A stretch of DNA of 64,000 bases from Nitrospirota bacterium (GTDB taxonomy: Bacteria > Nitrospirota > Thermodesulfovibrionia > Thermodesulfovibrionales > UBA1546). Below the pieces are notes generated by a model. That model had not been told where the DNA came from. It saw nothing but the letters and a program-made list of their open reading frames with translations, and ran no database searches. The stretch spans positions 4,003-68,002 of the forward strand of contig JACPZK010000004.1 of NCBI GenBank assembly GCA_016195565.1, read 5' to 3'. The position numbers and the translations under genes were made by a program. Shown piece after piece: positions 8,492 through 28,291 of the stretch; positions within the stretch are counted from its first letter, which is position 1, and every line of letters starts with the position of its first letter.

Positions 8492-9661
8492 GTGGGCAGA
8501 AAAATGATAGCTGTATTCCTTTTCGTATTTATTTTTTATGTCTCTGTTAATATTGCCGAGTGTTTTGCTGAATTAGAATGCGTTGATGCAGAGGGCGAGG
8601 CTGTTATTGTGAACAACGATGTGCCGTCTGCAAAAGCAGAGGCAATAGCAAGGGCAAAATGGAGCGCGATAGAGCAGGCGGTGGGTGTTGAGGTTAAGGC
8701 GCAGAGCGTGGTTCAGAATATGACGCTTGTTGACGATGCTGTAAGCAAACAGATAAGAGGCGTTATCTCTGGCTTCAAAGAGCTTGCCAAAGAAACGCGG
8801 AAAGATACCTTTTGGGTCAGGATAAATGCATGTGTTGAACCTTTAAAGGCTCAGGATGCACTTATGTCATTAGCCCTGAATAATTCCTTAGTGGTTTTTA
8901 TTCCTGCAAGGAAACCAAAGGTCGTAAGCGAACATAGCAGCAAGCACAGCACTTCTCTTCAGACGGCTGATGAATATGATGAGACAAACATCCTTTCAGA
9001 AAAATTAATTGGAAAACTTATAGAGCAGGGCTATCAGGTTGTTGATGTGGCTCCAACTCATGCAATGGATGCCGCTGATATCGAAAAGGCGGTGAAGTCC
9101 GGGAATTATATGACAGTGAGGTCTTTGATGTATAAGTTTCTTTCAAATGTCCTGCTTATCGGGAAGATTGATTATACTATCTCAACAAAAAAGGGGGAGG
9201 ATATCGGTTATGGCATTTCCATGCCGTTTCACAATGTCACTGTCAGGCTTACTTACAGGCTGATTACCAGAGATAAGGCAGGCAAGAATATTATTCTTCA
9301 GGCAGGCGCTGAAGAAGCAAAGGGACTGGCAATGAGCGTGGAGGATGCAACTGAGAAGGGTTTGCAGGCGCTCCAGGAAAAGATCACCCCGATTGTGTTA
9401 GAAGCCCTGTCAAAGCACATTAAAGGCGCTTCAAAGAAAATATCCTTTACAGCAAAGGACGTATCAGATATAAGCGTGAATTTCCAGATAAAGGAGATAT
9501 TGCAGAACACCGCGTGGGTTACCTCAGTCGAGGAAAAGAAACTCGGGGAATTTCTGGTTGGTTATCCGGAAAATATAGTTTATCTTATAAACAGCCTTGT
9601 CCAGAAAGGATTCAGACTCACGAACTTTACTAATTTGTCTGTGACAATGGAATACAGGTAA
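8492..9661 (+). CDS. exported protein, N-terminal LPP20/FlgP-like region (tentative)
   Basis: GTG start 9 nt after GGGAGG. Signal peptide present. The pattern AEGEAVIVNNDVPSAKAEAIARAKWSAIEQAVGVEV resembles LPP20-type lipoprotein domains. Confidence 0.45.
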   Translation: MGRKMIAVFLFVFIFYVSVNIAECFAELECVDAEGEAVIVNNDVPSAKAEAIARAKWSAIEQAVGVEVKAQSVVQNMTLVDDAVSKQIRGVISGFKELAKETRKDTFWVRINACVEPLKAQDALMSLALNNSLVVFIPARKPKVVSEHSSKHSTSLQTADEYDETNILSEKLIGKLIEQGYQVVDVAPTHAMDAADIEKAVKSGNYMTVRSLMYKFLSNVLLIGKIDYTISTKKGEDIGYGISMPFHNVTVRLTYRLITRDKAGKNIILQAGAEEAKGLAMSVEDATEKGLQALQEKITPIVLEALSKHIKGASKKISFTAKDVSDISVNFQIKEILQNTAWVTSVEEKKLGEFLVGYPENIVYLINSLVQKGFRLTNFTNLSVTMEYR

Positions 9662-9702
9662 TTCATAAACTTACAGGCCTGATTTAATTAAGGGGGGATT
9701 GC

Positions 9703-10671
9703 ATGAGAAAAGTATTTATCAGTTTTCTGGTTGTTGCCATTATATGTATTAGTGCTTTTACATCCGAGGCGGCAAAGAAAAAAGTAGCGGTTCTGGATTT
9801 TGAGTACGGGACAATAAGGGACCGGTGGTGGCCCGGAGACTGGGATATAGGTAAAGGCATATCAGATATGATGGTAACGCAGCTTGTAAAAGACGGCACT
9901 TTTTCAGTGATAGAGAGAAAACAGATTGAAAAGGTAATCAGCGAGCAAAAACTCGGAGCCAGCGGCCTGGTTGATGTTTCAACTGCAGCTCAAATCGGTA
10001 AAATCCTTGGTGTTAAGTATGTGATTCTGGGAAGCATTACCCAGTTCGGCATTGATACTAAAAATATTGATACCGGCGGCTTTGGAAGGATGTTTGGGCT
10101 TGGAGCAGATGTAGGTGTATCAACTGCTGTTGCTACTGTATATATTGATGCAAGAATGATTGATACTACAACTGCTGAGATAGTTGCTGTAGCTGAGGGC
10201 AAGGCTTCGGAAAGCAAAAGCAATGTGAAAATTTTTGCAAGTGATCGGCATCGGGGATACGGCCACGTGGCAATCGGCAGTTCAGGATTTGATGGTACCA
10301 TTCTTGGACAGACCACGCGCAAGTGTGTAGAAGATGTAGTAAAGCAACTTTCAGGAAAGACGACCGGCGCGGGAACATCTGGAGGAGCAATAAAAACAAA
10401 GGTGGCTGATACTGATGCCGGGTCAAAGACAGTTTATATAGCCGCAGGCAGCGGCGAGGGGATAACAGTCGGCCAGACCTTGTATGTTGTTAAGGTAAAG
10501 AAAGAGATAAAGGATCCTGAAACAGGAGAGGTTATAAAAAGGGTGGTAGAGACAACGGCAGAGATGGAAGTGACCGAGGTTGACAATAAATCCGCAACTG
10601 CTACAATTGTAAAAGGAAACATAAATGACATAAAGATAGGAGACAATGTCAGTTCTACACCTTCACTTTAA
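9703..10671 (+). CDS. CsgG-family (curli assembly/transport component-like) exported protein
   Basis: Signal peptide. KKKVAVLDFEY..GKGISDMMVTQLVKDGTFSVIERKQIEKVISEQ..GVKYVILGSITQFG..GLGADVG..VYIDARMIDTTTAEIV matches the CsgG family pattern. An extra C-terminal beta-rich domain follows. Confidence 0.7.
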   Translation: MRKVFISFLVVAIICISAFTSEAAKKKVAVLDFEYGTIRDRWWPGDWDIGKGISDMMVTQLVKDGTFSVIERKQIEKVISEQKLGASGLVDVSTAAQIGKILGVKYVILGSITQFGIDTKNIDTGGFGRMFGLGADVGVSTAVATVYIDARMIDTTTAEIVAVAEGKASESKSNVKIFASDRHRGYGHVAIGSSGFDGTILGQTTRKCVEDVVKQLSGKTTGAGTSGGAIKTKVADTDAGSKTVYIAAGSGEGITVGQTLYVVKVKKEIKDPETGEVIKRVVETTAEMEVTEVDNKSATATIVKGNINDIKIGDNVSSTPSL

Positions 10672-10694
10672 AACAACAAAACAAAGGCATTACA

Positions 10695-10964
10695 ATGAAC
10701 AAAAATGATAAAGAGGAATTGACTATACTGAGAATGTTATCAATACTCGCATTGCTTTTATTAGCATCTGTCGCATGTGCGCCGCCAGCTATTAAGACCA
10801 CTGCCCTTATGCCTGCAAAGTTTCATGAAGCTGCACAGTTAAAGGAAGTGGCTGTATTGCCTTTTGAAGGTGAGAGGGGAAGAGAGTTTTCAGCTGAAAT
10901 TGAAGGAGTTCTGGCAGGCGTAAACATTGGTGATAAACAATATTTTTCTTTGGCAGATAGCTAA
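10695..10964 (+). CDS. short lipoprotein ORF, possibly a truncated CsgG/LpoB-like N-terminal fragment
   Basis: Lipobox (LLLASVAC). Contains the EVAVLPFEGERG motif shared with neighbouring genes but ends after 89 aa. Confidence 0.35.
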   Translation: MNKNDKEELTILRMLSILALLLLASVACAPPAIKTTALMPAKFHEAAQLKEVAVLPFEGERGREFSAEIEGVLAGVNIGDKQYFSLADS

Positions 10965-11142
10965 AAAACAGGAAAAATCGCCAGTTTAATTGACCTGAAA
11001 GGCGGTGTTTTTGTCGCTTTATAGAAACTTTTAAGGCGGAGGTGAATTTTACCTTTACATATATTGCTGTTAGTGGTAAATAGTAAGAAGAGACGATGCT
11101 AATGCTATTAATAACTTTAACGACAAAACGAAGGAGGTAGGT

Positions 11143-12354
11143 ATGAAAGGCTGTATGAGAGTTCTGTTTATGGTTTTTATTCTTGCGTTTGTTTCTTCGT
11201 GCGGGAAGCAGGTTGCTAAATGCACGGACCCGACCGACAATCCGTCTCACCACTATTTAATGGGGATGCAGGCGCTGGAGGAGAAAAAAATTGATGTTGC
11301 GCAGAGCAAGTTTGAAAGGGCTAATTTTTGCGATGAAAAGTTCTCTCCTGCCCATGACGGTCTTGCCATTGTTTCAGCTTACAAGACTAAACAACAGGCT
11401 GACGCAGCATTTAAAAAAGTAGAGACTGAAAAGGCGATGGAACACCTCAAAAAAGCAGGCAAGCTTGCGGAAAGCGCTGAGGATAAATTTGACCACCTTG
11501 TGGCAACGATGAGAGTATACAGCGCCATTAAACCAACAAAAGACTGGCTGAAGACAGCAGAGGACGCTTTCAGCGATATTCGCGATCTGAAGGTTGAAGA
11601 AAAGAAGCTGACTTATTATCAGGGCAAAGAGGCTGCGGATTATTTTATGGGCAAGGCATATCTTAATGCATTAGAGTTCAGGCAGGCAAGAGATAAGTTT
11701 GCCGATGTCCTCAATGCAAAGAGAGAAGGCAAATGGAATGAGAAGGCTGATAAGGCGCATAAGCGAGTAGACAAGATAGTCCGCGCTATGGCAGGCATTA
11801 CGGTAGGCGATGTCGGCAAGCAGATAGCTGTTAAAGATTCAGTCACAAGGGCAGACCTTGCGGCGCTTCTTATTGTTGAGATGAAACTTGACAAGCTTTT
11901 TGCAGGACGCATCCCGGTAAAATCACAGATTGACAAAATGAAGGCAGAGTTTACGCCGGCAGATGTGCTTAACCATCCATTTAAGGAAGAGGTGCTTACA
12001 ATAATGAAGTGGAAGGTAAGGGGGCTTGAGCCGAAGTTTGACGAGACTACGAAGGCATATCTCTTTAAACCGTCGGATGTTGTAAAAAGAGGCGAAATGG
12101 CATTGATACTTGAAGACGTATTAATTAAACTCACAGGCAAAGAGGAACTTGCCACTGCATTTTTCGGACAGGATACATCACCGTTTCCTGATGTGAGAAA
12201 AACATCGCCGTTCTATAATGCTGTTATGAATATGACAACAAAAGGTATTATGGAAGGCGAGCTTTCAGGCGAGTTCAGGATAGATGCTCCTGTTGACGGA
12301 GCAGAAGCTATTCTTGCAATGAGAGTTTTAAAGCAGAGGATGAACATTTATTAG
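11143..12354 (+). CDS. lipoprotein with TPR-like N-terminal part and SLH (S-layer homology)-like C-terminal repeats
   Basis: Lipobox (AFVSSC|GK). The C-terminus has three SLH-like units (VTRADLAALLIVEM; VVKRGEMALILEDV; FPDVRKTSPFYNAVMNMTTKGIMEG..PVDGAEAILAMRVL). Confidence 0.55.
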   Translation: MKGCMRVLFMVFILAFVSSCGKQVAKCTDPTDNPSHHYLMGMQALEEKKIDVAQSKFERANFCDEKFSPAHDGLAIVSAYKTKQQADAAFKKVETEKAMEHLKKAGKLAESAEDKFDHLVATMRVYSAIKPTKDWLKTAEDAFSDIRDLKVEEKKLTYYQGKEAADYFMGKAYLNALEFRQARDKFADVLNAKREGKWNEKADKAHKRVDKIVRAMAGITVGDVGKQIAVKDSVTRADLAALLIVEMKLDKLFAGRIPVKSQIDKMKAEFTPADVLNHPFKEEVLTIMKWKVRGLEPKFDETTKAYLFKPSDVVKRGEMALILEDVLIKLTGKEELATAFFGQDTSPFPDVRKTSPFYNAVMNMTTKGIMEGELSGEFRIDAPVDGAEAILAMRVLKQRMNIY

Positions 12355-12361
12355 CATTAAA

Positions 12362-12428
12362 TTAAAAGTTGGAAGTTGAAAATGAAAAGTTTTAAAACTC
12401 TTAATTCTAAACTTTTAACTCTTAACTT
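12362..12428. repeat. AAAGT-unit dispersed repeat in inverted configuration (intergenic)
   Basis: ttaaaagttggaagttgaaaatgaaaagtt is followed by its imperfect reverse complement aactcttaattctaaacttttaactcttaactt. It could fold as a long hairpin after gene 11143..12354. Confidence 0.8.
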
Positions 12429-12446
12429 AAATAAAAGGAGGACGAT

Positions 12447-13457
12447 ATGAAACATAAGAGATGGCTTATCGGAGCGTTGATTTTACTCATTGGACTTGGA
12501 GGCATAGCTGTTGCCCAGCAATACCCGATGGATCAAATGGGAGGACAGCAGCCGCCTCAACAGCCTCCCCAGTCAGGCACTGTTCAGGTTGACGCAAGTT
12601 TTACTGCTGCAAATGAGTGGCTGAGCAAGAATAATCTTTCTTTAACCGGCAGCGCTGCAGGCAGGGATGACAATGCTGCTTTCAGTCAGGAAATGATCTT
12701 GTTTTACGGCGAGGCGTATGGCAATCCTGCGCATACTAATATCGCGCAAAGGGGAGGCATGGCTAAAAGGGCAGCAGTAGTTGTCGCTCAGAGATCGCTT
12801 GCAGAATATATGAACGGCTTTGCGATTGTCGGCGATACGCTGGTTAAAGACGGCGTAGCACAGTATGATGTAATCAGGTCTGCTGTTGCTGGGTTCATAA
12901 AAGGCATGCAGGTAGTATTTCAGGATTACAGCCCAGAGAAAGATACTGCCATTGCCATAATCAAGGTAGGAATGCACGGGCCGGATGGTTTTGCAACCAG
13001 CGTGTATAAAAAGATGTTTGTGTCCGAAAAAAAGATGGACCCCCAATTCGTAAAGGCTATTCATGAGGTAGACGGCAAACCTGCACCTAACTTTAAGGCA
13101 GCGGTAGTGCCTATTGAAAGTTACGATGGACTTATAATTGACGCTACTGAGCAGAACTTCAGGCCTGCCCTGATAAACAGGGTGTTCACTCCCAAGGGAG
13201 AACTGCTTTACGATCCATCAAAGATAAGCCAGAAAGTGCTTGTTGAGCAGGGATGCGGCGAATATACAAACAGTGTGGACAAGGCAAAGGCTGCGCTTGA
13301 TTCAAGAGGCGTAAAAAACCCTCTTATTATTAAGGCAGTAGGCACGGTTAGCGTGTCTGACCTTCAGGTCTCCGATGATGACGCAGTGAGTATCTTTTCG
13401 GCAAACCAAAAGAAAGGTTTTTTTGCAAGCGCGAAGGTAGCATTTGTGTTGAAATAA
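12447..13457 (+). CDS. exported protein, LPP20-like central region (tentative)
   Basis: Signal peptide. Q/P-rich linker. MAKRAAVVVAQRSLAEYMNGFAIVGDTLVKDG resembles LPP20-type domains. Confidence 0.4.
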   Translation: MKHKRWLIGALILLIGLGGIAVAQQYPMDQMGGQQPPQQPPQSGTVQVDASFTAANEWLSKNNLSLTGSAAGRDDNAAFSQEMILFYGEAYGNPAHTNIAQRGGMAKRAAVVVAQRSLAEYMNGFAIVGDTLVKDGVAQYDVIRSAVAGFIKGMQVVFQDYSPEKDTAIAIIKVGMHGPDGFATSVYKKMFVSEKKMDPQFVKAIHEVDGKPAPNFKAAVVPIESYDGLIIDATEQNFRPALINRVFTPKGELLYDPSKISQKVLVEQGCGEYTNSVDKAKAALDSRGVKNPLIIKAVGTVSVSDLQVSDDDAVSIFSANQKKGFFASAKVAFVLK

Positions 13458-13504
13458 ATAACGTTAAAGAGTCAACCCCGAGCTGATCGGGGCATGGGTT
13501 TAAG

Positions 13505-13541
13505 CATGAGTGACAGACGATTAGAGCGTCTGTCACTCATG
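13505..13541. terminator. perfect 15-bp-stem hairpin (possible terminator or RNA element)
   Basis: CATGAGTGACAGACG (13505-13519), 7-nt loop, CGTCTGTCACTCATG (13527-13541). Preceded by a smaller hairpin CCCCGA..TCGGGG (13477-13493). No T-tract follows. Confidence 0.4.
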
Positions 13542-13575
13542 ACGTTATGGGGATTCTTTAGGAGGTAAAAGGCTG

Positions 13576-15240
13576 ATGGCTATCTTAATAATATTCCTAT
13601 GCATGGTTGCAGTTTTTTCTCCCCTGCCGTGTTCAGCCAAGACCCTTATTCTTGACGGAGATCTGGAAAGCGGGATAAAGATGTCCCAGCAGATCAGCTT
13701 TGACGTCCAGCAGAGCGTAAAATCATTAACTTTTAAATTTGCTCTTCCGACTGAATTTTCCAATAAGGCAACGTCACAGGGTGTTGACAGCCTGAATATA
13801 AAATTTACGCCTGAACCGGTATCAGTTACAGATGATATAGATAAATTCGGCAACAGGTTTAAAAAAGTCAGGTGGGAGAACCTTAATCAGCGCGTCAATA
13901 TTACAATATCATTCAATGCCCGCATAAAAGCGGAACTGCGTTCAATGGAGAGCACCGCCCCGTTCCCTTTAAACGGAATATCAGGCAATGACGCTGTATT
14001 TCTCAAGCCGACACAGATGGTGCAAAGCGACAATGAAGAAATAATGGCCCTCTCAAGGAGGCTTACAGGCAATGCAAGGACCACTCACGATGCCGTGAAC
14101 GCAATACTTAACTGGGTAGCTGACAATGTGAAGTACACTTACAACCCTCCTCAATACGATGCGATACACACGATGAAAACAGGCAAGGGCAATTGCCAGA
14201 ACTTTGCGCATCTCTCAATGGCATTGCTAAGAGCCGCAGGCATTCCCTCCAGAATTGTCGGCGGCATCAGCCTTAAACGCCAGTGGAAGGTCCCTGTTGA
14301 AAACGGTTATCTTGTGCAGGATATGGGGCAGGGCGGACATGCATGGATGGAGATATTCTTTCCTGATTTAGGATGGCTTTCCTATGATCCCCAGCAGTCA
14401 AGGCAGTTTACTTCAACAAGGCATATCAAACAGACGCACGGACTGGATTCAAAGGATATTAATGACTCATGGTCAGCGTCTCCCTATCTGCCGAAATACA
14501 GCGAGGACATAGAAGCTGTATTTAATAACGACAACATCAATATAAAACTAAGGTCTTCAAAGAGCGCTCCCGTATCTTATATAATGAGCAATAATCTCAT
14601 GGCAAAAACAATCGCCCCTGAAAAACCACTGCCGCCGATTCCTAAACCTGAACCGCCTGTGACAAGGCCGGAACCTCCGGTTAAGCCTTCCCCTAAAAAG
14701 AAAGGCATTATCGAATTCGGCAATACGGACTTTCCAACACTTGTTGATGCCTATCAAACTGTTGGAAATGTTGCTACAAGGATTCTTGATAAAGAGACTG
14801 CCGAGTATGTAACATCACGGTATATTTATGCACAGGCGTTTACCGTGACTGATACGATGACAATGTATGAAGTGTCTCTTGCCATGCGAAAATTCGGAGG
14901 CGACGGCACGCTCTATATTGATATTGTTAAGGATGAAAATGGGAAGCCAGGTTTTGCCGGAGAAAGATCGCTGCCTGTTTTCCTTGGAAACATAAAGTTC
15001 CGTCCGGGTTATTACTGGATAGATTTTGTATTTGCTAAAGCTAATGAGCCGTCGCCTGTTCTTAAGCCGGGCAAATACTGGATAATACTCAGGCATTCAG
15101 GAGAGGCGATAGTAAACTGGTTTTATATTCCCGGCAATGCTTATGGGGACGGAGACGATACGCGTTCAACTGTTAAGGGCTATAAATGGGAAGACCTGCT
15201 GAATTACGACTTCGTGTTTAAGGTGAGGGGGAAAATATAA
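13576..15240 (+). CDS. exported transglutaminase-like cysteine protease superfamily protein
   Basis: Signal peptide. Transglutaminase core motif GKGNCQNFAHLSMALLRAAGIPSRIV ... GGHAWMEIFFPDLGWLSYDP (Cys-His-Asp). Pro-rich linker PEKPLPPIPKPEPPVTRPEPPVKP. Confidence 0.8.
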   Translation: MAILIIFLCMVAVFSPLPCSAKTLILDGDLESGIKMSQQISFDVQQSVKSLTFKFALPTEFSNKATSQGVDSLNIKFTPEPVSVTDDIDKFGNRFKKVRWENLNQRVNITISFNARIKAELRSMESTAPFPLNGISGNDAVFLKPTQMVQSDNEEIMALSRRLTGNARTTHDAVNAILNWVADNVKYTYNPPQYDAIHTMKTGKGNCQNFAHLSMALLRAAGIPSRIVGGISLKRQWKVPVENGYLVQDMGQGGHAWMEIFFPDLGWLSYDPQQSRQFTSTRHIKQTHGLDSKDINDSWSASPYLPKYSEDIEAVFNNDNINIKLRSSKSAPVSYIMSNNLMAKTIAPEKPLPPIPKPEPPVTRPEPPVKPSPKKKGIIEFGNTDFPTLVDAYQTVGNVATRILDKETAEYVTSRYIYAQAFTVTDTMTMYEVSLAMRKFGGDGTLYIDIVKDENGKPGFAGERSLPVFLGNIKFRPGYYWIDFVFAKANEPSPVLKPGKYWIILRHSGEAIVNWFYIPGNAYGDGDDTRSTVKGYKWEDLLNYDFVFKVRGKI

Positions 15241-15282
15241 TGAAACAATCATGTCTCAAGGAGAGACAAAGAGCAATGAAAG

Positions 15283-15420: not shown

Positions 15421-15425
15421 GTTAG

Positions 15426-15890
15426 ATGTATTTTCAGATGAAAATACTCAGTATACTGGCTGTTTTTGTTTTTTTCATGCTTTCGGCAGACGCCCTGTCT
15501 GCTGAGAAGGCGCAGAAACAAAACCCGCCCCTGTCCAAAGAAGAAATTCAGAAGTTAAGAGATATAGCAGTGATTATCGCGGAAGAAATAACAAGAAGAA
15601 ACATAAAGTCTGTTACAATAATAGATTTTAAAGACATTGAAGGCAATCCCTCAAAAAGAGGGAAAACAGTTGCTGCTGAATTCCGAAAGCAGATGGAGGC
15701 TTTAGGCAAGGCAAATTTTACGGTTAAGGACAGCGGCGGAGGCGCTTTGGTTACGGGAATGTTTCTTCCGTTTAAGGGCGGCGATAAATGGAGGCTGGAC
15801 ATAAAAGTCATAGAAGCTTTGTCGCCTGACAACAGGCTTATTACCTCTTACAGCGGGTTTTTCAGAAAAACAAAAGGGGTGAAAAAATGA
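15426..15890 (+). CDS. exported protein, unknown function (FlgO/TolB-N-like pattern, tentative)
   Basis: Signal peptide. IKSVTIIDFKDIEGNPSKRGKTVAAEFRKQMEAL resembles the N-terminal module seen in neighbouring CsgG/DUF799-like proteins. Confidence 0.4.
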   Translation: MYFQMKILSILAVFVFFMLSADALSAEKAQKQNPPLSKEEIQKLRDIAVIIAEEITRRNIKSVTIIDFKDIEGNPSKRGKTVAAEFRKQMEALGKANFTVKDSGGGALVTGMFLPFKGGDKWRLDIKVIEALSPDNRLITSYSGFFRKTKGVKK

Positions 15891-18172: not shown

Positions 18173-18297
18173 TAGAAGTTCAACGGAGATGCAATCAAGG
18201 CAGAATACCCAATCCGTTCTACTGGGCGGTGTTTATATTGCATGGTGAGGGATAGTTGTTTTCAGTTATCAATAGATAAATGAACGAGGAGGGTGCG

Positions 18298-19940: not shown

Positions 19941-20252
19941 ATGAACCCGAAGTTCGTCAAGACATTTGTTTGGGCTGCGGTAATCAGCATTTTACTCGGC
20001 ATGGCTGTTATGTCCCCTGCCGGCAGCTTTTTTCTCTACTCAGTTGCAGTGCTTTTTGCTGCAATTCCGACAATCTTTGGCACTAAGAGAACGCGTACTG
20101 CAGCCATCGTGATATTGGCTCTATCCATTGCCTTGCTTGCCGTAACATATCCGAAATTTAATATTGAAATGACGAAATATAGAGAGCGTGCTCATAAGAA
20201 GTCTTCAGAGGGCTCGGCAGTGCCGACTCATCCGCAACAAGGGAGCAGGTAA
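19941..20252 (+). CDS. small integral membrane protein
   Basis: 103 aa with predicted hydrophobic helices. RBS GGGAGGGAGGG upstream. Confidence 0.5.
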   Translation: MNPKFVKTFVWAAVISILLGMAVMSPAGSFFLYSVAVLFAAIPTIFGTKRTRTAAIVILALSIALLAVTYPKFNIEMTKYRERAHKKSSEGSAVPTHPQQGSR

Positions 20253-20457: not shown

Positions 20458-21447
20458 ATGAATAGAAAGATATTTATAAGCCTTTTTCTCTTTACGTTTT
20501 TCTTAACCCCTACCTTTGCCTCTGAAAAGCAGGAAAGTCCCGTAAAACCTGAAAATATTGTTTATGAAAAATACATATCAGAGGGTAATTTTTTTGTTGT
20601 ATTGATCCCTAAAGGATGGGGCAAAAAAGAAAAGGATTTTTCACACGCTTACACAAGAACAGGGGATAAGGTATTCGGAGTAGAGCTTTCCGGACCGCAT
20701 AATGCTGCTGGCTGTGTTCCAGTAGAAAAAGTACATGGATCTGGAGGTGAGGTTATCCAAATAAAGCAGGGAAATGTCGGCACTTTCCATGAACTCCGGA
20801 TAGGTGTCACAAATATAATTAAAGCTGATTATCTTGATGAGGCTGGCATAAAAAAGCATGGTTTAATAGCTATATTGACATTATTTATTGAAGGGAATCC
20901 CCCGCAAGAAAAGGACTTTAAAGTTCATGCGGGGCAAAAGATAATAATGGATAAATACTTAGTGTATGTGGAAGAAATACGAGGAACTGTTAAAGGCTTA
21001 GTAATATTGCGGATAGAAGAGATTTCTAAATCTCCGTATAAAGACGAGGCCCGCCTGACAATCTCCGTTTTGTATTATGAGTACGGACAGTTTTTTAAAA
21101 GTTATGAGAGATATATCAACCTCAAAATAGGGACTTTCACACGCCTCGCCCCGGAAAAAGATGTCTATATTACAAATACGGCAGTGGCGGGAAGGGAGGC
21201 TAAAAAGTTTGAGATTGAAACATTTGAACTTATTCCCCTGCCTTTTAATCCGCCTGATTTCAAGGAAGGCATCATATATGAAATTGTCCCGCCTTCAAGG
21301 AAAGTTACAGTCATAGAAAGATACATTGTAATCCCTGTTGAGAAAGGTTTTTATGTATTGAACTACAGGGCATCGCCTGATATTGCAAAAAGTATTGAAG
21401 GGATATTTGAAAAGGTTTTAAACTCTTTTGAACCATTGATAAAATGA
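20458..21447 (+). CDS. exported protein of unknown function
   Basis: Signal peptide (FLFTFFLTPTFA|SEK). I recognise no family. Confidence 0.5.
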   Translation: MNRKIFISLFLFTFFLTPTFASEKQESPVKPENIVYEKYISEGNFFVVLIPKGWGKKEKDFSHAYTRTGDKVFGVELSGPHNAAGCVPVEKVHGSGGEVIQIKQGNVGTFHELRIGVTNIIKADYLDEAGIKKHGLIAILTLFIEGNPPQEKDFKVHAGQKIIMDKYLVYVEEIRGTVKGLVILRIEEISKSPYKDEARLTISVLYYEYGQFFKSYERYINLKIGTFTRLAPEKDVYITNTAVAGREAKKFEIETFELIPLPFNPPDFKEGIIYEIVPPSRKVTVIERYIVIPVEKGFYVLNYRASPDIAKSIEGIFEKVLNSFEPLIK

Positions 21448-21486
21448 AAAAATTATACGGCTGGGAAATTTTTCATGGGAGGGGAT

Positions 21487-24400
21487 ATGCTTAGATTTAA
21501 GAATTTATTCCGCTTTTTATCAGTCTGGTTTTGGGTTATTGCCATATTGTCAATCAGCCATGTTGCTGTCTCTGCCGCTGAAAAGCCTGAGATTTTTGTG
21601 CAGATGGGACATACAAAAAGAGTTAACTCTGTAGCCTTTTCTCCTGATGGTAAATATGCCTTGTCAGGGAGTTGGGATAAAACCCTCAAGCTATGGGAGA
21701 TTGCATCCGGGAGGGAAGTGCGTACTTTTTACGGGACAGAGAAAGTGACCTCCATAGCCGTAAGTCCGAACGGAAAGTATGTCATTTCGGGAGATGAAGA
21801 TAGAGGAAAAAATCTAAAACTATGGGACATGGCGTCAGGGAAGAGGATAAGGACTTTCAGCGGGGATATACATAGAGATACCGACTATATACAAGATACC
21901 GACAATGTCATCTTCAGCCCTGATGGGAAGCATGTGTTATCAGGAGGTGAAAACCTTAACTTATGGGATATTGCATCAGGAAAAAAATTGCGGACTTTTA
22001 GAAATGCTAACAAGGATAACGCTAGAATTGTTTCAATAGTCATAAGTCCAGACGGCAGGTATGTAATTTCTGGGAGCAGGTACAACGGCCAAGTGCAAAT
22101 GCCGGACGGAACGTTTACTAACGCAAAGAGTAGTGATAACACCATCGGAATATGGGATATCGTCACAGGTGAAAAGATAAGAGCCTTTAACGGGGGTAAG
22201 GGTTGGGTTACAGCGATAGCCATAAGCCCAGATGGAAAGCATGTTATTTCGGGGGACTATGAAGATAGCGCCAGGATGTGGGACATCGCCACAGGCAGAC
22301 AGGTTAAAGCATTCAATGTGGAAGGGGTTTCCTCTATAGCTGTAAGCCCGGACGGTAAATATGCCCTATTCGGCGGCGTCATGAATATCAGGCTCTGGGA
22401 TATTGAAAAAGACAGGGAGATAAAAACCTTCAGCGGACATAGTGGTTGGGTTCGGTCTGTCGCCTTCAGTCCTGATGGAAAGTATGCGCTTTCGGGGAGT
22501 GATGATAACGCCCCCATGCTATGGGATATTGCATCCGGCAAAGAATTAAGGAGCTTTGGCGGATATACGCAACAAGTTGCCTCAGTATCGCCAAGCGCAG
22601 TTGGCAAGAAAATTCTCATAGGTCAGGAAGTTGGTTTGCTGAATCTCTGGGACATTTCAAACGGCAGGCAGATCAAAACAATCAAACACACCCTTGGTGT
22701 TCGTGCTGTGGCAATCAGCCGCGATGGCACGTATGCTGCGGCAGGCGGGTGGGATTTTCCAGAAAGCTCTTCGACCATCAAACTCTGGAACATTACAACA
22801 GGCAGGGAAATACAGACTTTGAAAAAAGCAGGGGTGTATCACTGGGCTCGCCCTGTGGCAATAAGCCCTGGCAATAAGGATATTTTTTGGTCGGTTGGCT
22901 CCACGCTCATGTTATCGGATATTGCAACAGGGAAAGAAATAAAGACATACAGTGGTGGACACAAAGCAGAAATCCAATATGCAATGATGAGTGCTGATGG
23001 CAGATATGCCATTTCTAACGATGGTCTGGCGCTTAACATCTGGGATGTCTCTACGGGCAAAGCAATAAAAACTTTTGATAATAAAAATTGGGGATATCAA
23101 GGGACTTTTAGTTCAGACGGAAAGAACGTCCTCTTGATGGGTTTCGATTACGATAAAAGCAACAAGCTCATCTTCAAAATTTGGGATATTCCGACAAACA
23201 GAGAAATAAGCACATCGGCGGTGCAATACGACTCTAAAATCAAAACTGGTAATATCGACTTATTAGCCATGAGTCACGATGGCAGATTCGCACTTTGGTC
23301 GGAGAACATGACCTTGTACCTTTGTGAAATCTCGACCGGAAAAGTGCTAAGAACTTTATCCGGGCATGTGAACCGAATATCCTTCATAGGCATAAGTCCT
23401 GATGATAAGCATGTGTACTCCGGAAGTTATGACGGCACAACCCGCCTCTGGGACATCTCCACCGGCAAAGAACTCGCCCAGTTCATCAGTTTCACCGACA
23501 GCGAATGGGTTATCATCACCCCTGAAGGCTATTTCAACGCCTCACCGAATGGCGCCAAGCATCTCAATGTCCGTGTTGGCAACAATGTTTATTCCATAGA
23601 CAACTTTTATGAAAAGTTCTTTAATCCTGTTTATGTTGCCTCTGTGCTACAGGGCAAAAAGGTTGAGGCGGTTGCAGATATAAGGAAAGGAATCTTAACG
23701 CCTCCTGATGTCAAGATTACCTCTCCTGAGCCGAACACATCATTCAGCACAGACACTGTGACAATAACCGTCTCTGCGAAGGATACAGGTGGCGGTATTG
23801 ATGAGATACGGCTTTATCATAATGGCAAGGCAATTGGCGAAGATACGAGGGCTGTAAAGATCGTTCCAAAAGGCAGCGAAACAATAAAGACATACACAGT
23901 TGCCCTCGTTGATGGACTTAACACATTCAGGGCAACTGCATTCAGCAAAGACAGGACAGAATCAAACCCGTATGAACTCATGGTAAAACTCACAGCGCCA
24001 TCAAAAGAGGTCAACCTTTATATCCTTGCAGTTGGCATAAATAAATACAAAAACCCTGCGTTGAACTTAAACTATGCAGAGCCTGACGCGCGGGGGATTG
24101 TGAATTTCTTCAGAGAAAAGGGCGGACTATTTAAAAAGGTCACTGTCATTGAGATATATGATGAGAAAGCCACCAGAGAGACGATAATCTCAAAGTTAAA
24201 GCAATTGCAAAACACCCAGCCGCAGGATGCAGTGCTGATATATCTTGCAGGACATGGCGAAAGCATTGGCGACAAATGGTATTTTATTCCCCATGAACTC
24301 ACATATCCTGAAAGAGAGGAGGACGTAAAGACAAAGGGAATATCATCGGATGAATTTTCAGGCTATATAAAAAATATAACTGCACAAAAGATGCTCGTCT

Positions 24401-24750
24401 TGATTGATGCGTGCAAGTCAGGAGCAGTGCTTGTGGCATTCAGGGGTTTTGAGGACAGGAAGGCTCTATCGCAGTTGTCAAGGTCAACAGGTGTGCATAT
24501 AATAGCAGCATCATCCAAAGACCAGTTTGCGGCAGAGGTAAAAGAACTCGGTCATGGGGTATTCACATACACCCTCCTTGAGGGATTAAAGGGCAAGGCA
24601 GCAGGCAAAGGTGAGACTGTTACAGTGAGAAAACTGATGGGATATATAGAAGAAAAACTGCCTGACATAACGAAGAAATACAAACAGGAGGCGCAATTTC
24701 CAGTAGTTGACTCAAAGGGAATGGATTTTCCGTTGGTAATAGTAAAATAG
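21487..24750 (+). CDS. exported WD40-repeat / caspase-like (peptidase C14) protein
   Basis: ATG at 21487 after GGGAGGGG. Signal peptide. More than 12 WD40 units (..SPDGKY.LSGS.D.T.KLWDI.SG.E.RTF). Ig-like segment. C14 domain with the His/Cys dyad (IYLAGHGES ... LVLIDACKSGA). Confidence 0.85.
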   Translation: MLRFKNLFRFLSVWFWVIAILSISHVAVSAAEKPEIFVQMGHTKRVNSVAFSPDGKYALSGSWDKTLKLWEIASGREVRTFYGTEKVTSIAVSPNGKYVISGDEDRGKNLKLWDMASGKRIRTFSGDIHRDTDYIQDTDNVIFSPDGKHVLSGGENLNLWDIASGKKLRTFRNANKDNARIVSIVISPDGRYVISGSRYNGQVQMPDGTFTNAKSSDNTIGIWDIVTGEKIRAFNGGKGWVTAIAISPDGKHVISGDYEDSARMWDIATGRQVKAFNVEGVSSIAVSPDGKYALFGGVMNIRLWDIEKDREIKTFSGHSGWVRSVAFSPDGKYALSGSDDNAPMLWDIASGKELRSFGGYTQQVASVSPSAVGKKILIGQEVGLLNLWDISNGRQIKTIKHTLGVRAVAISRDGTYAAAGGWDFPESSSTIKLWNITTGREIQTLKKAGVYHWARPVAISPGNKDIFWSVGSTLMLSDIATGKEIKTYSGGHKAEIQYAMMSADGRYAISNDGLALNIWDVSTGKAIKTFDNKNWGYQGTFSSDGKNVLLMGFDYDKSNKLIFKIWDIPTNREISTSAVQYDSKIKTGNIDLLAMSHDGRFALWSENMTLYLCEISTGKVLRTLSGHVNRISFIGISPDDKHVYSGSYDGTTRLWDISTGKELAQFISFTDSEWVIITPEGYFNASPNGAKHLNVRVGNNVYSIDNFYEKFFNPVYVASVLQGKKVEAVADIRKGILTPPDVKITSPEPNTSFSTDTVTITVSAKDTGGGIDEIRLYHNGKAIGEDTRAVKIVPKGSETIKTYTVALVDGLNTFRATAFSKDRTESNPYELMVKLTAPSKEVNLYILAVGINKYKNPALNLNYAEPDARGIVNFFREKGGLFKKVTVIEIYDEKATRETIISKLKQLQNTQPQDAVLIYLAGHGESIGDKWYFIPHELTYPEREEDVKTKGISSDEFSGYIKNITAQKMLVLIDACKSGAVLVAFRGFEDRKALSQLSRSTGVHIIAASSKDQFAAEVKELGHGVFTYTLLEGLKGKAAGKGETVTVRKLMGYIEEKLPDITKKYKQEAQFPVVDSKGMDFPLVIVK

Positions 24751-24769
24751 AACTGAAGGAGGTTGCGTT

Positions 24770-25621
24770 ATGCTAAAAATATTTATTTCAGCGATTTTGA
24801 GTTTATTTCTATTCTCTAACCTTTACGCTGCACAATCAACAATCATTGAATCAGAAGGCTATGCATGCATGGGCGAGGATAAATCAATGAAGCAGACAGA
24901 GCATGCCGCTATGGCAGATGCAAAGGATAAAGCGGCAAAAAATGCAGCCACTTATATCAAGGGCGAGACAAAGGTAAAAGACTCACAGTTAGTTAAGGAC
25001 ATCATTGAGGCTTATAACAACGCTACAGTTGTAGTTGATAAGGAACTTGAAAAGGGCTGGTACACTGACCCCTCATTAGGCAAATGTTACAAGGTAAAGA
25101 TAAAGGCAAATGTCATACCTGATGAAAATGCAATGAAAAGAATCTCTCAGGGAACCACAGATGATCCCTCTGCGCCTTTAAATGTACAGGTATGGACAGA
25201 TAAAAAGGAATACAAGGAAGGCGATAAGATTAAGATTTACATGAGAGGCAATAAGCCGTTTTATGCAAAGGTTATCTATAAGGAGACAACCGGAAACCTA
25301 ATCCAGATTTTACCAAACCCTTACAGGAAGGATAACTACTTTAACGGCGGTGTTATTTATGAAATCCCCTCAGGCAATGACAAATTTGAACTTGAGGTGA
25401 ACCCTCCTTTCGGCGAGGAAAGCATTATGATATACGCAAGCGTCTCTCAGCTTGGAGATTTAGATCTGAAAAAAGAGGGCGGCGTCTATCAGGTAAAAAC
25501 TAAGCCAAAAGATATAGGCATAAAGACAAGAAGCGTTAAAGTTAAGGAAGTCACAGAAGGGAAAACCCAGCAGGCAGCAGATTATTCTGAGGGGGAAGTT
25601 GTGGTAAAAACAGGGAAGTAA
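24770..25621 (+). CDS. exported protein with LPP20-like N-terminus and DUF4384-like C-terminal domain
   Basis: Signal peptide. VQVWTDKKEYKEGDKIKIYMRGNKPFYAKVIYKETTGNLIQILPNPY matches the DUF4384 pattern, a domain often associated with bacterial caspase proteins. Confidence 0.6.
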   Translation: MLKIFISAILSLFLFSNLYAAQSTIIESEGYACMGEDKSMKQTEHAAMADAKDKAAKNAATYIKGETKVKDSQLVKDIIEAYNNATVVVDKELEKGWYTDPSLGKCYKVKIKANVIPDENAMKRISQGTTDDPSAPLNVQVWTDKKEYKEGDKIKIYMRGNKPFYAKVIYKETTGNLIQILPNPYRKDNYFNGGVIYEIPSGNDKFELEVNPPFGEESIMIYASVSQLGDLDLKKEGGVYQVKTKPKDIGIKTRSVKVKEVTEGKTQQAADYSEGEVVVKTGK

Positions 25622-25753
25622 CAGTATGCTGCTGCTATTCGGGCATAATTTTGTGGTTTTGAAGGATGTCCTATAAAAGGGAAAGTTTCTACGATATTCT
25701 GAAAAGAAGAATGTCTTAAACTATCTATAAACCTCTAACTTAAGGAGGGTGAA

Positions 25754-28291
25754 ATGAAAACATTCAAAAAAATAACCATGCCAAGAATCGTGTTAATCAC
25801 TTCAATTCTGTTCCTTACCTCATGCGCAATGGCAACGGCAGTCCCGGAGATCTATTTAAAGCAGAGCGATTTAAAGATGGAGCTCAACAAAGAGGCTTAC
25901 GGCATAGATACAATGTATGTTTCAAAAGATGGAAAGTATATGCTAACTGGGAGTATGGGAGATGTTTTAACGGGACTCGGATTATCATCAAAGAGGGCTT
26001 CAATGCGGCTATGGGATCTGACAGAGGGAAAGCAGCTTCTAATGAAACCTACGTCGTCTGAACGAATGCACTCAGTTGCTCTATCGTCTGACAGCAGATA
26101 TTCTGTGACTGGCGGGTTGGCTACAGTTCATGGTTGGCAATCAAAACAGGCAGCTATTCTTGAAATATGGGATATTGCTAATAGCGTTTTATTAAAAGAT
26201 TTTAAAGATTTGCATGGTTCAGTAGTCAGCAGTGTGAATTTTTCTCCTGACGGGAGATATTTGCTTGCCACCGCAGGAACTGATATTCATCTGATTGACA
26301 CAAAAACATGGAACATAGTCAGGACAATGAGTTATAAGTATCAAAAGTCATATTTTTCCTCTCCATATTTTTCCTCTCCATATTTTTCCTCTGGAGTCGC
26401 AACATTTTCCCCGGATGGAAAGTTCATTCTTTCGGGAGGACTGGATGCGGTAGTCCGATTGTGGGATGTTGAAACGGGAAGAGAGATCAGGCAGTTCCAC
26501 GGGCATAAAAAAGGAATGTGGGGGGGTGTTAGTGCTGTTGCCTTTACTACTGACCGTTATGCGCTGACAAGCGGTTGGCATGACGATAATGTCATGCTCT
26601 GGGACATCAAGACAGGTGTTGAAGTTAGGCGATTTTCAGGATTTGAAAGTTATATGTTTACATACGTGTCCGGGCTTGCACTTTCTCCTGACGGCAAGCA
26701 TGTGTTGATTGAGGGTTTTCCACTAAAGATTTGGGATATTCAAACGGGAGAAGGGTTGACAGATCTTAATTATATATGGAAAGGGATGAAAACTGCGAGT
26801 ATTGGAAAAGCCCAGTATCATCCCAACGGACAGCATATTTTATTAACGTGGGGTGAACCCGCAGTTAGGATTTTCGATATCAAAACCGGCGAGGAAATAG
26901 CAGTCTTTATAGGCTTCGAAGACGGCGAGTGGCTAACAATTACAAGCGAGGGGTACTACAACGCTTCAGAGAAAGGCGCCCAGTATCTGACTGTTAAGAT
27001 GGGTGATAAAGACTACATGGTCGAGAGTTTTTATGACGTCTTTTACCGTCCCGATGTTGTTACAGCCAAGTTGAGGGGGGATGACATAAGCGGTCTGATA
27101 ACTATTACAATGAAAGACGCAATCAAAAGCCCTCCGCCTGTAGTTGAGATTAGCCCGATTGCGTCATCTCCAACATCTCCAAAGGCAAAAGTCTGCTACA
27201 AGGCAAAAAGCACAGGTGGAGGCATTGGAGAGATAAGGCTCTTTCATAATGGAAAACTTATCGAATCAGACGGCTACTACAAAGAAACGGCAAAGACATC
27301 AGACAAGATGCAATTAGCACAAATAAACAGCAAAACAATCTATGAAGACATGCGGAGCGTCAAAATAAAAGGCATAGGAGAGATAAGCCCGATAAAGAGC
27401 AAGACAAAAGGAGAACAATTTGAAGCCTGCAAAGAAGTGGACGCAATAGCAGGAGAAAACGAGATAAGCATAACAGCCTTTAATAAAGACAATACAGTAC
27501 AGGGCTACATGCAGACAGTAAAATTCAACTCAACAATAAAACAGGAGGACGCTAATCTTTATATCCTTTCAATAGGCATAGACCAGTATAGGGACAACAG
27601 TGTCGCCCTAAAATATGCGGCAAGGGATGCAAAAGACATTGGAGAAAAACTGATGAGACAATCAGCGACATTATACAAGCCTCAGAATATTCATTACGAG
27701 CTTCTTGCTGACAATATGGCCACAAAGGCAAACACAATAAGCAAAATAAACGATCTTTCAAAGATAATCAAACCCACAGACAGCTTCATTCTCTTCGTAG
27801 CAGGACACGGAATACTTTTACAAAACCAGTACTACATGCTAACCAGCGAATATGACGGAAATGTAAATGAAGGCACAATGATAAGTTCAAATGAAATAGT
27901 TGAAATATCCAAGAAAATAAAATCCCTCTCACAGTTATTCATCTTTGACACATGCCATGCAGGAGGCGTGGATTATATCGTGAGCGGATTATATGATGCA
28001 AGGATGTCAGTGCTTGCAAAGAAGATGGGGCTTCACATATACGCATCAGCCAATTCAAAAGAGCAGGCAATGGACGGGTATCAGGGGAATGGTTTATTCA
28101 CCTATACTCTACTTGACGGATTAAACAATAATAAAAATGCAGACAAAAACAAAGACAACAAAATCTCGCTCACAGAACTTGGAGAATACTCAAAACAGAC
28201 CACAACAGATATATCAAAAAAGATTGGGCATGCACAGACGCCTCTAATCATAAACTTTGGAAAGGACAATACGGTTTATAATTTGAGATGA
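25754..28291 (+). CDS. WD40-repeat / caspase-like (peptidase C14) lipoprotein, paralog of 21487..24750
   Basis: Lipobox (LFLTSC|AMA). WD40 units. The linker motif GEWLTITSEGYYNAS parallels SEWVIITPEGYFNAS in the paralog. C14 dyad present (LFVAGHGIL ... LFIFDTCHAGG). Confidence 0.85.
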   Translation: MKTFKKITMPRIVLITSILFLTSCAMATAVPEIYLKQSDLKMELNKEAYGIDTMYVSKDGKYMLTGSMGDVLTGLGLSSKRASMRLWDLTEGKQLLMKPTSSERMHSVALSSDSRYSVTGGLATVHGWQSKQAAILEIWDIANSVLLKDFKDLHGSVVSSVNFSPDGRYLLATAGTDIHLIDTKTWNIVRTMSYKYQKSYFSSPYFSSPYFSSGVATFSPDGKFILSGGLDAVVRLWDVETGREIRQFHGHKKGMWGGVSAVAFTTDRYALTSGWHDDNVMLWDIKTGVEVRRFSGFESYMFTYVSGLALSPDGKHVLIEGFPLKIWDIQTGEGLTDLNYIWKGMKTASIGKAQYHPNGQHILLTWGEPAVRIFDIKTGEEIAVFIGFEDGEWLTITSEGYYNASEKGAQYLTVKMGDKDYMVESFYDVFYRPDVVTAKLRGDDISGLITITMKDAIKSPPPVVEISPIASSPTSPKAKVCYKAKSTGGGIGEIRLFHNGKLIESDGYYKETAKTSDKMQLAQINSKTIYEDMRSVKIKGIGEISPIKSKTKGEQFEACKEVDAIAGENEISITAFNKDNTVQGYMQTVKFNSTIKQEDANLYILSIGIDQYRDNSVALKYAARDAKDIGEKLMRQSATLYKPQNIHYELLADNMATKANTISKINDLSKIIKPTDSFILFVAGHGILLQNQYYMLTSEYDGNVNEGTMISSNEIVEISKKIKSLSQLFIFDTCHAGGVDYIVSGLYDARMSVLAKKMGLHIYASANSKEQAMDGYQGNGLFTYTLLDGLNNNKNADKNKDNKISLTELGEYSKQTTTDISKKIGHAQTPLIINFGKDNTVYNLR
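26349..26393 (+). repeat. 3 x 15-bp perfect tandem repeat inside the WD40-caspase gene
   Basis: The unit catatttttcctctc occurs three times and encodes (S)YFSSPYFSSPYFSSG. Confidence 0.9.

Follow-up and report, generated by a model that had tools for sequence, protein, structure and literature searches.

The window analysed in this work is a stretch of 64,000 nucleotides of contig JACPZK010000004.1 from the metagenome-assembled genome of a Nitrospirota bacterium (Thermodesulfovibrionales type), in which an initial annotation had singled out a block of fourteen co-directional genes for exported proteins between positions 8492 and 28291. We tentatively interpret this block, with a confidence somewhat short of even, as the local version of a conserved, uncharacterised cluster of the Nitrospirota (Thermodesulfovibrionales) and Desulfobacterota, whose products would form, beneath the outer membrane, a ring or scaffold that is non-flagellar, tethered to peptidoglycan and furnished with periplasmic proteases. 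What the sequence analysis itself shows are the export signals, the identities of domains and folds, the catalytic residues and the synteny. Judged by sequence profiles and structural models, three of the products (g01, g05 and g13) bear one superfamily domain, SHS2, whose nearest characterised relatives are flagellar ring proteins.

The open reading frames (ORFs) of the block are named g01-g14 here, the two genes upstream of it u2 and u1, and the four genes downstream d1-d4 (Table 1). The fourteen ORFs are consecutive, lie on the plus strand and have the limits given in the initial annotation. They are part of an uninterrupted series of plus-strand genes (6329-35632), flanked 5' by minus-strand AddB and ArgJ and 3' by TrmD, RNase HII and other housekeeping genes. 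Export was called with a custom heuristic (h-region hydrophobicity, lipobox pattern and small residues at -3/-1) and not with SignalP. An N-terminal h-region with a mean Kyte-Doolittle value of at least 2.59 was present in 14/14 block ORFs, lipoboxes were recognised in four (g03, g04, g08 and g14), and g10 contains three transmembrane (TM) segments, in agreement with the earlier claim that thirteen products carry a signal peptide or lipobox and the fourteenth is a membrane protein. In the remainder of the window approximately 9 of 33 ORFs scored for export, several of these being polytopic membrane proteins or false positives. The enrichment of export signals in the block is real, albeit based on a heuristic. 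The count of fourteen proteins held for the ORFs only, as g03 is a gene remnant and not a fourteenth protein. An additional ORF in the gap between g06 and g07 (15251-15505, 84 amino acids) was judged spurious, since it overlaps the start of g07 and is unsupported.

Domains shared with flagellar ring proteins

The architecture of FlgT, consisting of an SHS2 N-domain, a CsgG-like M-domain and a C-domain, is matched by g01 at the level of fold. The AlphaFold2 (AF2) model of g01 (mean predicted local distance difference test score, pLDDT, of 75) retrieved FlgT at the top of the Foldseek search (3w1e, E = 4.5e-8; 8z5n_0, E = 5.7e-8; 316-318 columns), followed by CsgG, HpaA, GNA1162 and Lpp20 (5ok8, 1.8e-3). 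The Pfam FlgT_N model gave 26.3 bits on g01, slightly below its gathering threshold (GA) of 28.8, and many proteins of the g01 family are annotated with PF16548. For g05, a family profile built from 20 homologues matched FlgP of Campylobacter jejuni (9hmf_C, E = 1.9e-12) and of Vibrio (8z5n_2, E = 1.1e-7). The alignment with FlgP covers 83 residues without a gap and spans the ring-forming hairpin insert, where g05 has a segment of equal length between the helix and the second strand. An SHS2-like fold is common to FlgP, Lpp20 and the FlgT N-domain, and ring formation goes with the hairpin insert at this position (Drobnic et al., PMC12222027). The C-domain of g05 (residues ~215-336) is the most conserved stretch in the cluster and has no assigned fold; elsewhere it matched only a viral HU-like protein, and that marginally (E = 0.009). 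One g05 orthologue is named 'OmpA-like domain-containing' in UniRef; the Pfam OmpA model did not match.

The N-domain of g13 was aligned by hhalign with that of g01 (probability 95%, E = 2.2e-8) and, more weakly, with g05 (E = 3.2e-5), and is followed by a DUF4384 domain (E = 5.9e-24). The g13 family comprises 2008 representatives, whose profile matched nothing among the PDB sequences, so that the link runs solely through the g01 family. The products of these three genes (8492, 12447 and 24770) had been described as LPP20-like. This description stands at the superfamily level, owing to the matches to FlgP, FlgT_N and Lpp20; the Pfam LPP20 model (PF02169) left all three unmatched, even with isolated domains at E<=10, and the label was therefore replaced by FlgP/FlgT_N (SHS2).

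The assignment of g02 to the CsgG family was firmly supported by Pfam (PF03783, E = 2.3e-37, model positions 6-202 of 210), with an additional FlgT_C domain (E = 4.5e-7). Its AF2 model (pLDDT 77) was closest in Foldseek to FlgT (6.9e-16 and 3e-14), well ahead of CsgG (2.3e-8) and then GNA1162, PelC, LpoB, HpaA and CT253. Since g01, g02 and g05 are structurally closest to FlgT and FlgP, and not to curli CsgG and Lpp20, a ring or scaffold replaces a secretion channel as the likely mechanism.

The secretion channel is nevertheless the first alternative to be weighed. In a type VIII (curli/HfaB-like) system g02 would be an outer-membrane channel, the lipoproteins its accessories and a protein or fibre the exported cargo, which we consider unlikely. 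The Pfam CsgG match, running nearly from end to end, means that both TM-hairpin segments are present, and the g02 model contains unusually long strands (106-123, 135-154 and 160-179); however, these segments, although of the right length, are modelled at pLDDT 39-61, and in the family consensus they are rich in Gly and lack a clear amphipathic pattern. When compared by eye with the E. coli sequence, a conserved GG.G..FG.GAD stretch of g02 resembles the TM1 hairpin of CsgG. The fold is shared as well and database sources annotate the family as CsgG/HfaB, but the NCBIfam CsgG equivalog (PRK15184) gave g02 only 19.3 bits against a cut-off of 505. The signal peptide of g02 ends in AFTSEA/AKKK without a lipobox, and the consensus of 93 homologues contains no conserved Cys, whereas CsgG is a lipoprotein that in its non-lipidated form remains a periplasmic pre-pore. 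No csgA/B/E/F or hfaA/D family was detected in Pfam scans of the 14 products and the flanks or in the annotated syntenic loci. Moreover, the CsgG-like slot of related loci holds very different paralogues and is empty in two of them (L024 and L042). The g02 family is also far broader than the cluster, given that an Acidobacteriota homologue (42% identical) is accompanied by an upstream partner of only 193 amino acids and by no other cluster genes.

The short ORF g03, which combines a lipobox with the VAVLPFE strand, shares 52-75% identity with the N-terminal ~90 residues of lipoproteins of 343-347 amino acids with a CsgG-like domain (L007, L014, L015, L016 and L032). The stump is followed by a non-coding gap of 178 nt (the two together occupying 10695-11142), and tblastn found no trace of the remainder of the parent gene within the window. 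By these comparisons g03 is a deletion remnant, an N-terminal quarter from which ~750 bp are gone. The same deletion was found in 6/6 contigs of the source population; an identical copy of g02 is encoded on GCA_016178645.1 and on five assemblies of groundwater read sets, and its nearest named homologues are from Nitrospirota.

A motif said to recur at four N-termini was found in its exact form only three times (VAVLDFE in g02, VAVLPFE in g03 and VAVLPFQ in g08), and is degenerate in g07 (VTIIDFK). In the g02 model it forms the first beta-strand (26-30) of the CsgG/GNA1162 fold. Searches with g07 against Pfam and PDB and by hhalign, including against the CsgG-like families, gave no match; as a relationship of g07 to this fold could not be demonstrated, VTIIDFK was not accepted as evidence for it.

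The conserved core and its gene order

Besides the ring-protein relatives, the conserved part of the block encodes a lipoprotein with an SLH domain (g04), a transglutaminase-like enzyme (g06), the small protein g07 and a large multidomain lipoprotein (g08). The lipobox of g04 reads FVSSC, and its SLH match (PF00395, E = 2.6e-15) covers residues 347-390; two further SLH-like motifs (TRAD and KRGE) were recognised by eye only. With 63-95% identity across 23 loci, g04 is among the best-conserved genes of the cluster, and its sequence features lead us to propose it as a tether between the outer membrane and the peptidoglycan. In g06 the Transglut_core domain (E = 4.6e-28) has an invariant triad of C207, H255 and D271. 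The GNA1162-like domain (PF05643, DUF799) of g08 scored 28.1 bits in the full-length protein and 31.5 bits when taken alone (GA 25.9), and across 15 loci the protein shows 53-94% identity. In its TPR region it is similar to PgaA, BcsC and PrsT. The earlier description of g08 as an expanded DUF799 lipoprotein held for the GNA1162/DUF799, NosD-type beta-helix and TPR parts; the FN3 part is weakly supported, with no Pfam match and PDB FN3 domains at E = 0.014-0.05. The domain searches likewise confirmed the SLH, transglutaminase-like and DUF4139 (g09) assignments, as well as DUF4384 and Peptidase_C14.

A search with the g06 alignment as query and one genome per species (GTDB) retrieved 33 loci (loci and contigs are numbered with the prefix L here), which fall in the Nitrospirota and Desulfobacterota (Geobacteraceae and Syntrophorhabdales). 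Among them g05 occurs in 24, g04 in 23, g01 in 21, g07 in 16 (each time adjoining g06 or g08) and g08 in 15, mostly in the order of the window and at 50-95% identity, so that the gene order is kept across both phyla. Apart from the two empty slots mentioned above, a CsgG-like gene stands between g01 and g04 wherever this interval is visible, and is either of the g02 type or of one of three divergent types. The cultured Geomesophilobacter sediminis has a bare four-gene operon (g01, CsgG-like gene, g04, g05). The g05 gene is also found in other cultured Geobacteraceae, with two paralogues in Citrifermentans and Geomonas. In Citrifermentans bremense and Geoanaerobacter pelophilus, whose genomes are complete, the left part of the locus comprises g01, genes for an extracytoplasmic function (ECF) sigma factor, an anti-sigma factor, a small protein and an M48/TPR peptidase, and g04; to the right, g04 is followed by g05, g06, a WD40-caspase gene, a small-protein gene, FecR, a CHASE2-cyclase gene, a class II phosphodiesterase gene and MlaE.

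The arrangement is modular. By sequence comparison, g01-g08 form a core shared by both phyla, g10-g11-g12(-g13) make up a recurrent but variable caspase sub-module, and g09 is sporadic; a lipid transporter and cyclic-nucleotide or ECF regulation are further modules. Seven loci, drawn from both phyla, have a g13-like gene 3' of g06 or g08; caspase genes occur in five. The 51-kb contig L052 carries g08, a g09 remnant, g11, g12, g13, MlaE, ABC, MlaD and TPR genes in this order. In L046 the order is Crp, g04, g05, further genes, g06, FecR and CHASE2-cyclase.

The joint occurrence of CsgG, LPP20 and DUF799 genes without an assigned function, mentioned in the initial annotation, has support in the literature, as a widespread cluster of CsgG with two lipoproteins, one of them a GNA1162 homologue, has been described without a role (10.1101/2021.05.19.444899). 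In our block the CsgG-like, SHS2-bearing and GNA1162 genes all lie on the plus strand within 8492-18172, and their adjacency is conserved. As in the Neisseria NMB1162 region and in Acinetobacter (D1G37_12595-12605), the three domain families are thus adjacent and all exported. In contrast to those clusters, the CsgG-like protein of the block is not a lipoprotein and has FlgT_C, larger proteins with FlgP-like and FlgT_N-like domains stand in the place of the LPP20-like one, the GNA1162 domain is part of a fusion with a beta-helix and TPR, and at least four more conserved genes (g01, g04, g06 and g07) are present.

Several variants of the locus were recorded in passing. In the Geobacteraceae loci L044 (4242-8617) and L047 (4065-8616), ECF sigma, zf-HC2 anti-sigma, small-protein and M48/TPR peptidase genes are inserted between g01 and g04; most Nitrospirota clusters are instead preceded by genes for Crp and BrkB fused to a cyclic nucleotide (cNMP)-binding domain. 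Four loci (L015, 12153-17727; L038, 9251-14687; L028, 940-6700; L035, 8491-13300) have, between g07 and g08, an extra paralogous trio consisting of a g01-like protein (28% identical), a protein of ~660 amino acids with TPR and CsgG-like parts and a g08-like protein of 730-750 amino acids. This trio is absent from the window. Between Nitrospirota and Geobacteraceae, the identity of g01, g04 and g05 is 60-70% (the window compared with L031, L034, L036, L042, L043 and L044), a high value for separate phyla that points to either lateral transfer of the cluster or an unusually strong constraint on its sequences.

Table 1. Position and predicted content of the genes of the block and of its flanks in the 64,000-nucleotide window
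Gene	Position	Strand	Predicted product
u2	6329..7558	+	BrkB/YihY-type membrane protein fused to a cNMP-binding domain
u1	7638..8345	+	Crp/Fnr-type regulator, cNMP_binding and HTH_Crp_2
g01	8492..9661	+	exported FlgT-like protein: SHS2/FlgT_N-like N-domain (~8579-8830), CsgG-like middle (~8876-9430), small C-terminal alpha/beta domain
g02	9703..10671	+	CsgG-family domain and FlgT_C; Sec signal without lipobox
g03	10695..10964	+	truncated lipoprotein-gene remnant, 89 amino acids
g04	11143..12354	+	lipoprotein: helical-repeat N-terminal half, C-terminal SLH repeats
g05	12447..13457	+	exported protein: FlgP-type SHS2 domain (~12684-12932), C-domain (~13089-13454)
g06	13576..15240	+	exported transglutaminase-like enzyme; Pro-rich linker; conserved C-terminal domain
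g07	15426..15890	+	small exported protein, fold unassigned; 4-nt overlap with g08
g08	15887..18172	+	lipoprotein: GNA1162/DUF799-like domain, weak FN3-like part, NosD-type beta-helix, TPR
g09	18280..19908	+	exported MuiA-family protein, DUF4140 and DUF4139
g10	19941..20252	+	membrane protein of 103 amino acids, 3 TM segments; caspase sub-module
g11	20458..21447	+	exported protein; constant upstream partner of WD40-caspase
g12	21475..24750	+	exported WD40 propellers, Big_7 Ig domain, orthocaspase
g13	24770..25621	+	exported protein: SHS2/FlgT_N-like N-domain (~24833-25138), DUF4384 (~25208-25444)
g14	25754..28291	+	lipoprotein, WD40 repeats and orthocaspase; lineage-specific extra copy
d1-d4	28347..31635	+	MlaE-like permease, short ABC ATPase, MlaD/MCE protein, TPR protein

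Caspase genes, sporadic genes and flanks

The right half of the block contains the caspase genes noted initially, two in number. Both products combine Peptidase_C14 with WD40 and have an intact His-Cys dyad: His925/Cys980 in g12 (E = 1.2e-17; AGHG at 925, DACKSG at 978) and His685/Cys734 in g14 (E = 7e-14; AGHG at 683, DTCHAG at 732). L013 encodes a full-length orthologue of g12. In L052, the closest syntenic contig, g14 is missing between g13 and d1. Pfam gave no match for g11. In 16 of the metagenome contigs that continue beyond g11, a g12-like WD40-caspase gene comes next, and g10 often precedes g11 (upstream of it in L057, L058 and L080, and adjoining it in L062 and L073). The g11 gene of the window appears composite: most of its relatives have ~222 amino acids and no counterpart of residues ~84-190 (compare L052, 7173-7841), and this segment corresponds to separate ORFs of 130-136 amino acids, 78-82% identical, in unrelated contexts on contigs L065-L069 (e.g., L065, 9920-10330). 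With bacterial orthocaspases the two enzymes share the dyad, the WD40 propellers and the association with DUF4384. They differ in being wholly exported, one as a lipoprotein, in having DUF4384 on a separate, SHS2-fused protein and in the location of their genes inside a cluster for envelope structure.

The right half of the block, taken by itself, may be a caspase-centred system. As an explanation of the whole block, in which exported WD40-orthocaspases would detect envelope damage or a periplasmic ligand and respond by cleaving targets, signalling through FecR/CHASE2-cyclase and cNMP receptors with the FlgT/FlgP/CsgG-like proteins as substrates or docking surface, it appears to us quite unlikely. 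The dyads and export signals of both caspases and the tight g11-g12 pairing fit such a system. Caspase genes adjoin g06 or g08 in L013, L014, L027, L029, L044 and L047, but the core stands without a caspase gene within 10 kb in many loci, including L008, L020, L024 and L043. The accessory domains known from orthocaspases include DUF4384, WD40 and CHASE2 (PMC7475262). A FecR/CHASE2-cyclase pair is found downstream in L044, L046 and L047, and both the window and L046 have a Crp gene 5' of the core; no CHASE2-cyclase, however, is among the ORFs of the window that were scanned with Pfam. A known defence system was rejected, as PADLOC returned a generic caspase model only. Literature searches gave nothing relevant on exported WD40 orthocaspases and no paper joining CHASE2, FecR and caspase.

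The presence of g09, which belongs to the 'mucoidy inhibitor' MuiA family (TIGR02231, E = 1.4e-108), together with the domains of g08, brings in a further explanation, an exopolysaccharide or matrix device. In such a device a ring of the PelC/GNA1162 type, a lyase- or epimerase-like beta-helix, TPR and MuiA would act on a surface polysaccharide by guiding, modifying or anchoring it. The fold neighbours include PelC dodecamers and GNA1162, and the small alpha/beta ring-forming lipoprotein fold at the inner face of the outer membrane, together with TPR, recalls PelC and PelB of Pel export, but the PelC match is at fold level only. The union of GNA1162-like, NosD/pectate-lyase-like and TPR domains in g08 would suit this role; the NosD and TPR matches are, however, generic, and g09 occurs in only 2-3 relatives (L007, L010 and, as a remnant, L052). 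Anchoring of poly-N-acetylglucosamine has been hypothesised for the Acinetobacter CsgG-lipoprotein cluster (10.1101/2021.05.19.444899), and a similar proposal exists for HfaABD. As no glycosyltransferase, polymerase, flippase or beta-barrel porin, and no polysaccharide synthesis gene, was found in the block or the syntenic loci examined, we regard this explanation as very unlikely.

The limits of the block proved too narrow. Caspase, DUF4384, Mla-like and cNMP genes recur beside the core in other genomes, hence the unit is wider than 8492-28291 and, on this comparative evidence, probably spans ~6329 to 31635. Upstream, u2 (Virul_fac_BrkB, 9e-41; cNMP_binding, 3e-20) is a probable regulatory or effector partner, with a similar gene 5' of g01 in 8 Nitrospirota loci; u1-like genes lie upstream of the core in 7 loci and immediately 5' of g04 in L046. 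Downstream, d1-d4 are probable further members. An MlaE permease (d1, 1.5e-55), an ABC ATPase and an MlaD/MCE protein (d3, 1.5e-13) are co-located there, and all four genes d1-d4 have counterparts 3' of the core in L031 and L035 (Desulfobacterota) and 3' of g13 in L052. No MlaB, MlaC or MlaA family was matched in the adjacent ORFs scanned. The ATPase (d2, 29114-29770) is short, with 218 amino acids and a weak ABC_tran match (E = 7.7e-8), and reading frames overlap at d1/d2, d2/d3 and d3/d4.

Elsewhere in the window, a second small group of exported proteins is encoded at 54465-63886. It consists of a secreted protein of 427 amino acids without a domain match, an NHL/beta-propeller lipoprotein (58642-59439) and a Peptidase_C13 lipoprotein (59465-60319), followed by two radical-SAM genes. 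Peptidase_C13 enzymes are legumain-like and belong to the same protease clan as caspases. A Tll0287-like/GGDEF diguanylate cyclase gene and a tyrosine recombinase gene (40458-41690 and 47491-48417), as well as a LonC-like protease gene (43442-45889), lie downstream, and no link of these to the block was seen.

A candidate ring beneath the outer membrane

CsgG, PelC and related small lipoproteins act as rings. In the Vibrio flagellar H-ring, FlgT (26 copies), FlgP and FlgO (58 copies each) build concentric, outer-membrane-anchored rings without a pore, which are held at the inner face of the outer membrane through lipid anchors (10.64898/2025.12.02.691832). The basal disk of Campylobacter, where FlgP is accompanied by FlgQ, is built by FlgP alone (PMC12222027). 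The block resembles these structures in the FlgT N (SHS2) and M (CsgG-like) domains of g01, in the FlgT-M-like and FlgT_C domains of g02 and in the FlgP SHS2 domain of g05 with its ring-forming insert. CsgG/GNA1162-fold lipoproteins are also present (g03 and g08), a fold group to which we believe FlgO belongs. A peptidoglycan-binding element accompanies the rings in both cases, SLH in the block and the OmpA-like part of MotY in Vibrio. Ring formation is proposed because FlgT, FlgP and FlgO of Vibrio, FlgP of Campylobacter, CsgG and PelC all work as rings. Unlike the flagellar rings, the block has extra C-domains in g05 and g01 and is joined by a transglutaminase-like enzyme, WD40-caspases, DUF4384 and an Mla-like transporter, and the similarity of single sequences is marginal. 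A flagellar role was dropped, given that no flagellar family was found among the Pfam-scanned ORFs of the window or in the annotated syntenic neighbourhoods.

From homology and gene context we infer the following arrangement. The g01 protein, a CsgG-family protein (g02 or a paralogue) and g05 would oligomerise into ring or disk layers beneath the outer membrane, which g04 would fix by its lipid to the outer membrane and by its SLH repeats to the cell wall. As a peripheral scaffold, g08 may add a lipoprotein ring domain with beta-helix and TPR arms, and g06 may cross-link, trim or process the components. A variable protease sub-module on this platform would comprise g10, g11, g12, g14 and g13; the N-domain of g13, being homologous to that of g01, could dock g13 to the ring. 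The MlaEFD-like lipid transporter and cyclic-nucleotide signalling may be functionally coupled to the structure, the partners being Crp and BrkB-cNMP in the window and the FecR/CHASE2-cyclase pair with a phosphodiesterase in Geobacteraceae. Through the recurrent CHASE2-cyclase, Crp and cNMP genes the state of the structure might be reported to the cytoplasm. Its physiological role would be support of the outer membrane combined with envelope surveillance.

A number of observations weigh against the ring or scaffold. Two of its presumed layers differ from their models in their anchoring, as g05 has a type I signal (AVA/QQ) without a lipobox, whereas FlgP and FlgO are outer-membrane lipoproteins, and g02 is not lipidated as CsgG is. 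The CsgG-like gene is missing in two loci, and the right half of the block stands separate from g01-g07 in L052, so that the parts can function, or at least persist, apart. The AF2 models are monomers of medium quality (pLDDT 75-77, and 43-49 in the hairpin region of g01), and differing domain orientations keep the Foldseek TM-scores low (0.2-0.4). The hhalign comparisons among the g01, g02 and g05 family alignments, which have low diversity (effective number of sequences, Neff, of ~2), were not significant. Weak promoter-like sites 5' of g01 (8363-8391) and of g11 and a weak terminator-like site 3' of g08 were recorded; these scans did not exceed shuffled controls and served as weak hints at most.

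That unrelated envelope genes of the leading strand were grouped by chance or convenience is the least probable explanation, in spite of the decaying g03, the promoter- and terminator-like sites suggestive of several transcription units, the separate right half of L052 and the lack of g09, g10, g11 and g14 in most relatives, since synteny largely refutes coincidence for g01-g08, with five to seven genes recurring in one order in both phyla (50-95% identity), since caspase, DUF4384, MlaE and cNMP genes recur independently beside the core in distant genomes, and since export signals are so much rarer elsewhere in the window. The earlier idea that the CsgG-like, LPP20-like and DUF799-like trio is embedded in a larger, uncharacterised envelope assembly is thus supported by the domains and the cross-phylum synteny; it needs amending in that the assembly is not one uniform unit and that FlgT and FlgP are nearer to its proteins than CsgG and Lpp20.

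No paper describing the present combination of genes was found in the literature, and databases list the homologues of g01 and g05 throughout as 'hypothetical protein' or under a domain label. The combination of FlgT/FlgP-type and orphan-lipoprotein parts with a cell-wall anchor and exported caspases leads to the hypothesis that the orphan CsgG/LPP20/GNA1162 clusters build outer-membrane rings and not channels, and it places bacterial caspases in an unusual extracytoplasmic, structural setting. The cluster should be testable by genetics and cryo-tomography in the cultured Geobacteraceae Citrifermentans bremense, Geoanaerobacter pelophilus and Geomesophilobacter sediminis. A bolder proposal, to which we give little credence at present, is that of a previously unseen non-flagellar organelle, a peptidoglycan-anchored ring or disk below the outer membrane, homologous to the H-ring and basal disk, that would serve as the platform of an extracytoplasmic caspase pathway. 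Its exported WD40-orthocaspases would sense envelope damage or an invader and cleave ring or envelope targets, a signal would pass inward through CHASE2-cyclase and cNMP receptors, and the MCE transporter would remodel the outer membrane. To our knowledge, rings of the FlgT/FlgP/FlgO type are known only as flagellar accessories. The cluster is a candidate ancestral source of the flagellar outer rings and, if the organelle exists, it would represent the kind of envelope complex from which the flagellar accessory rings were recruited.

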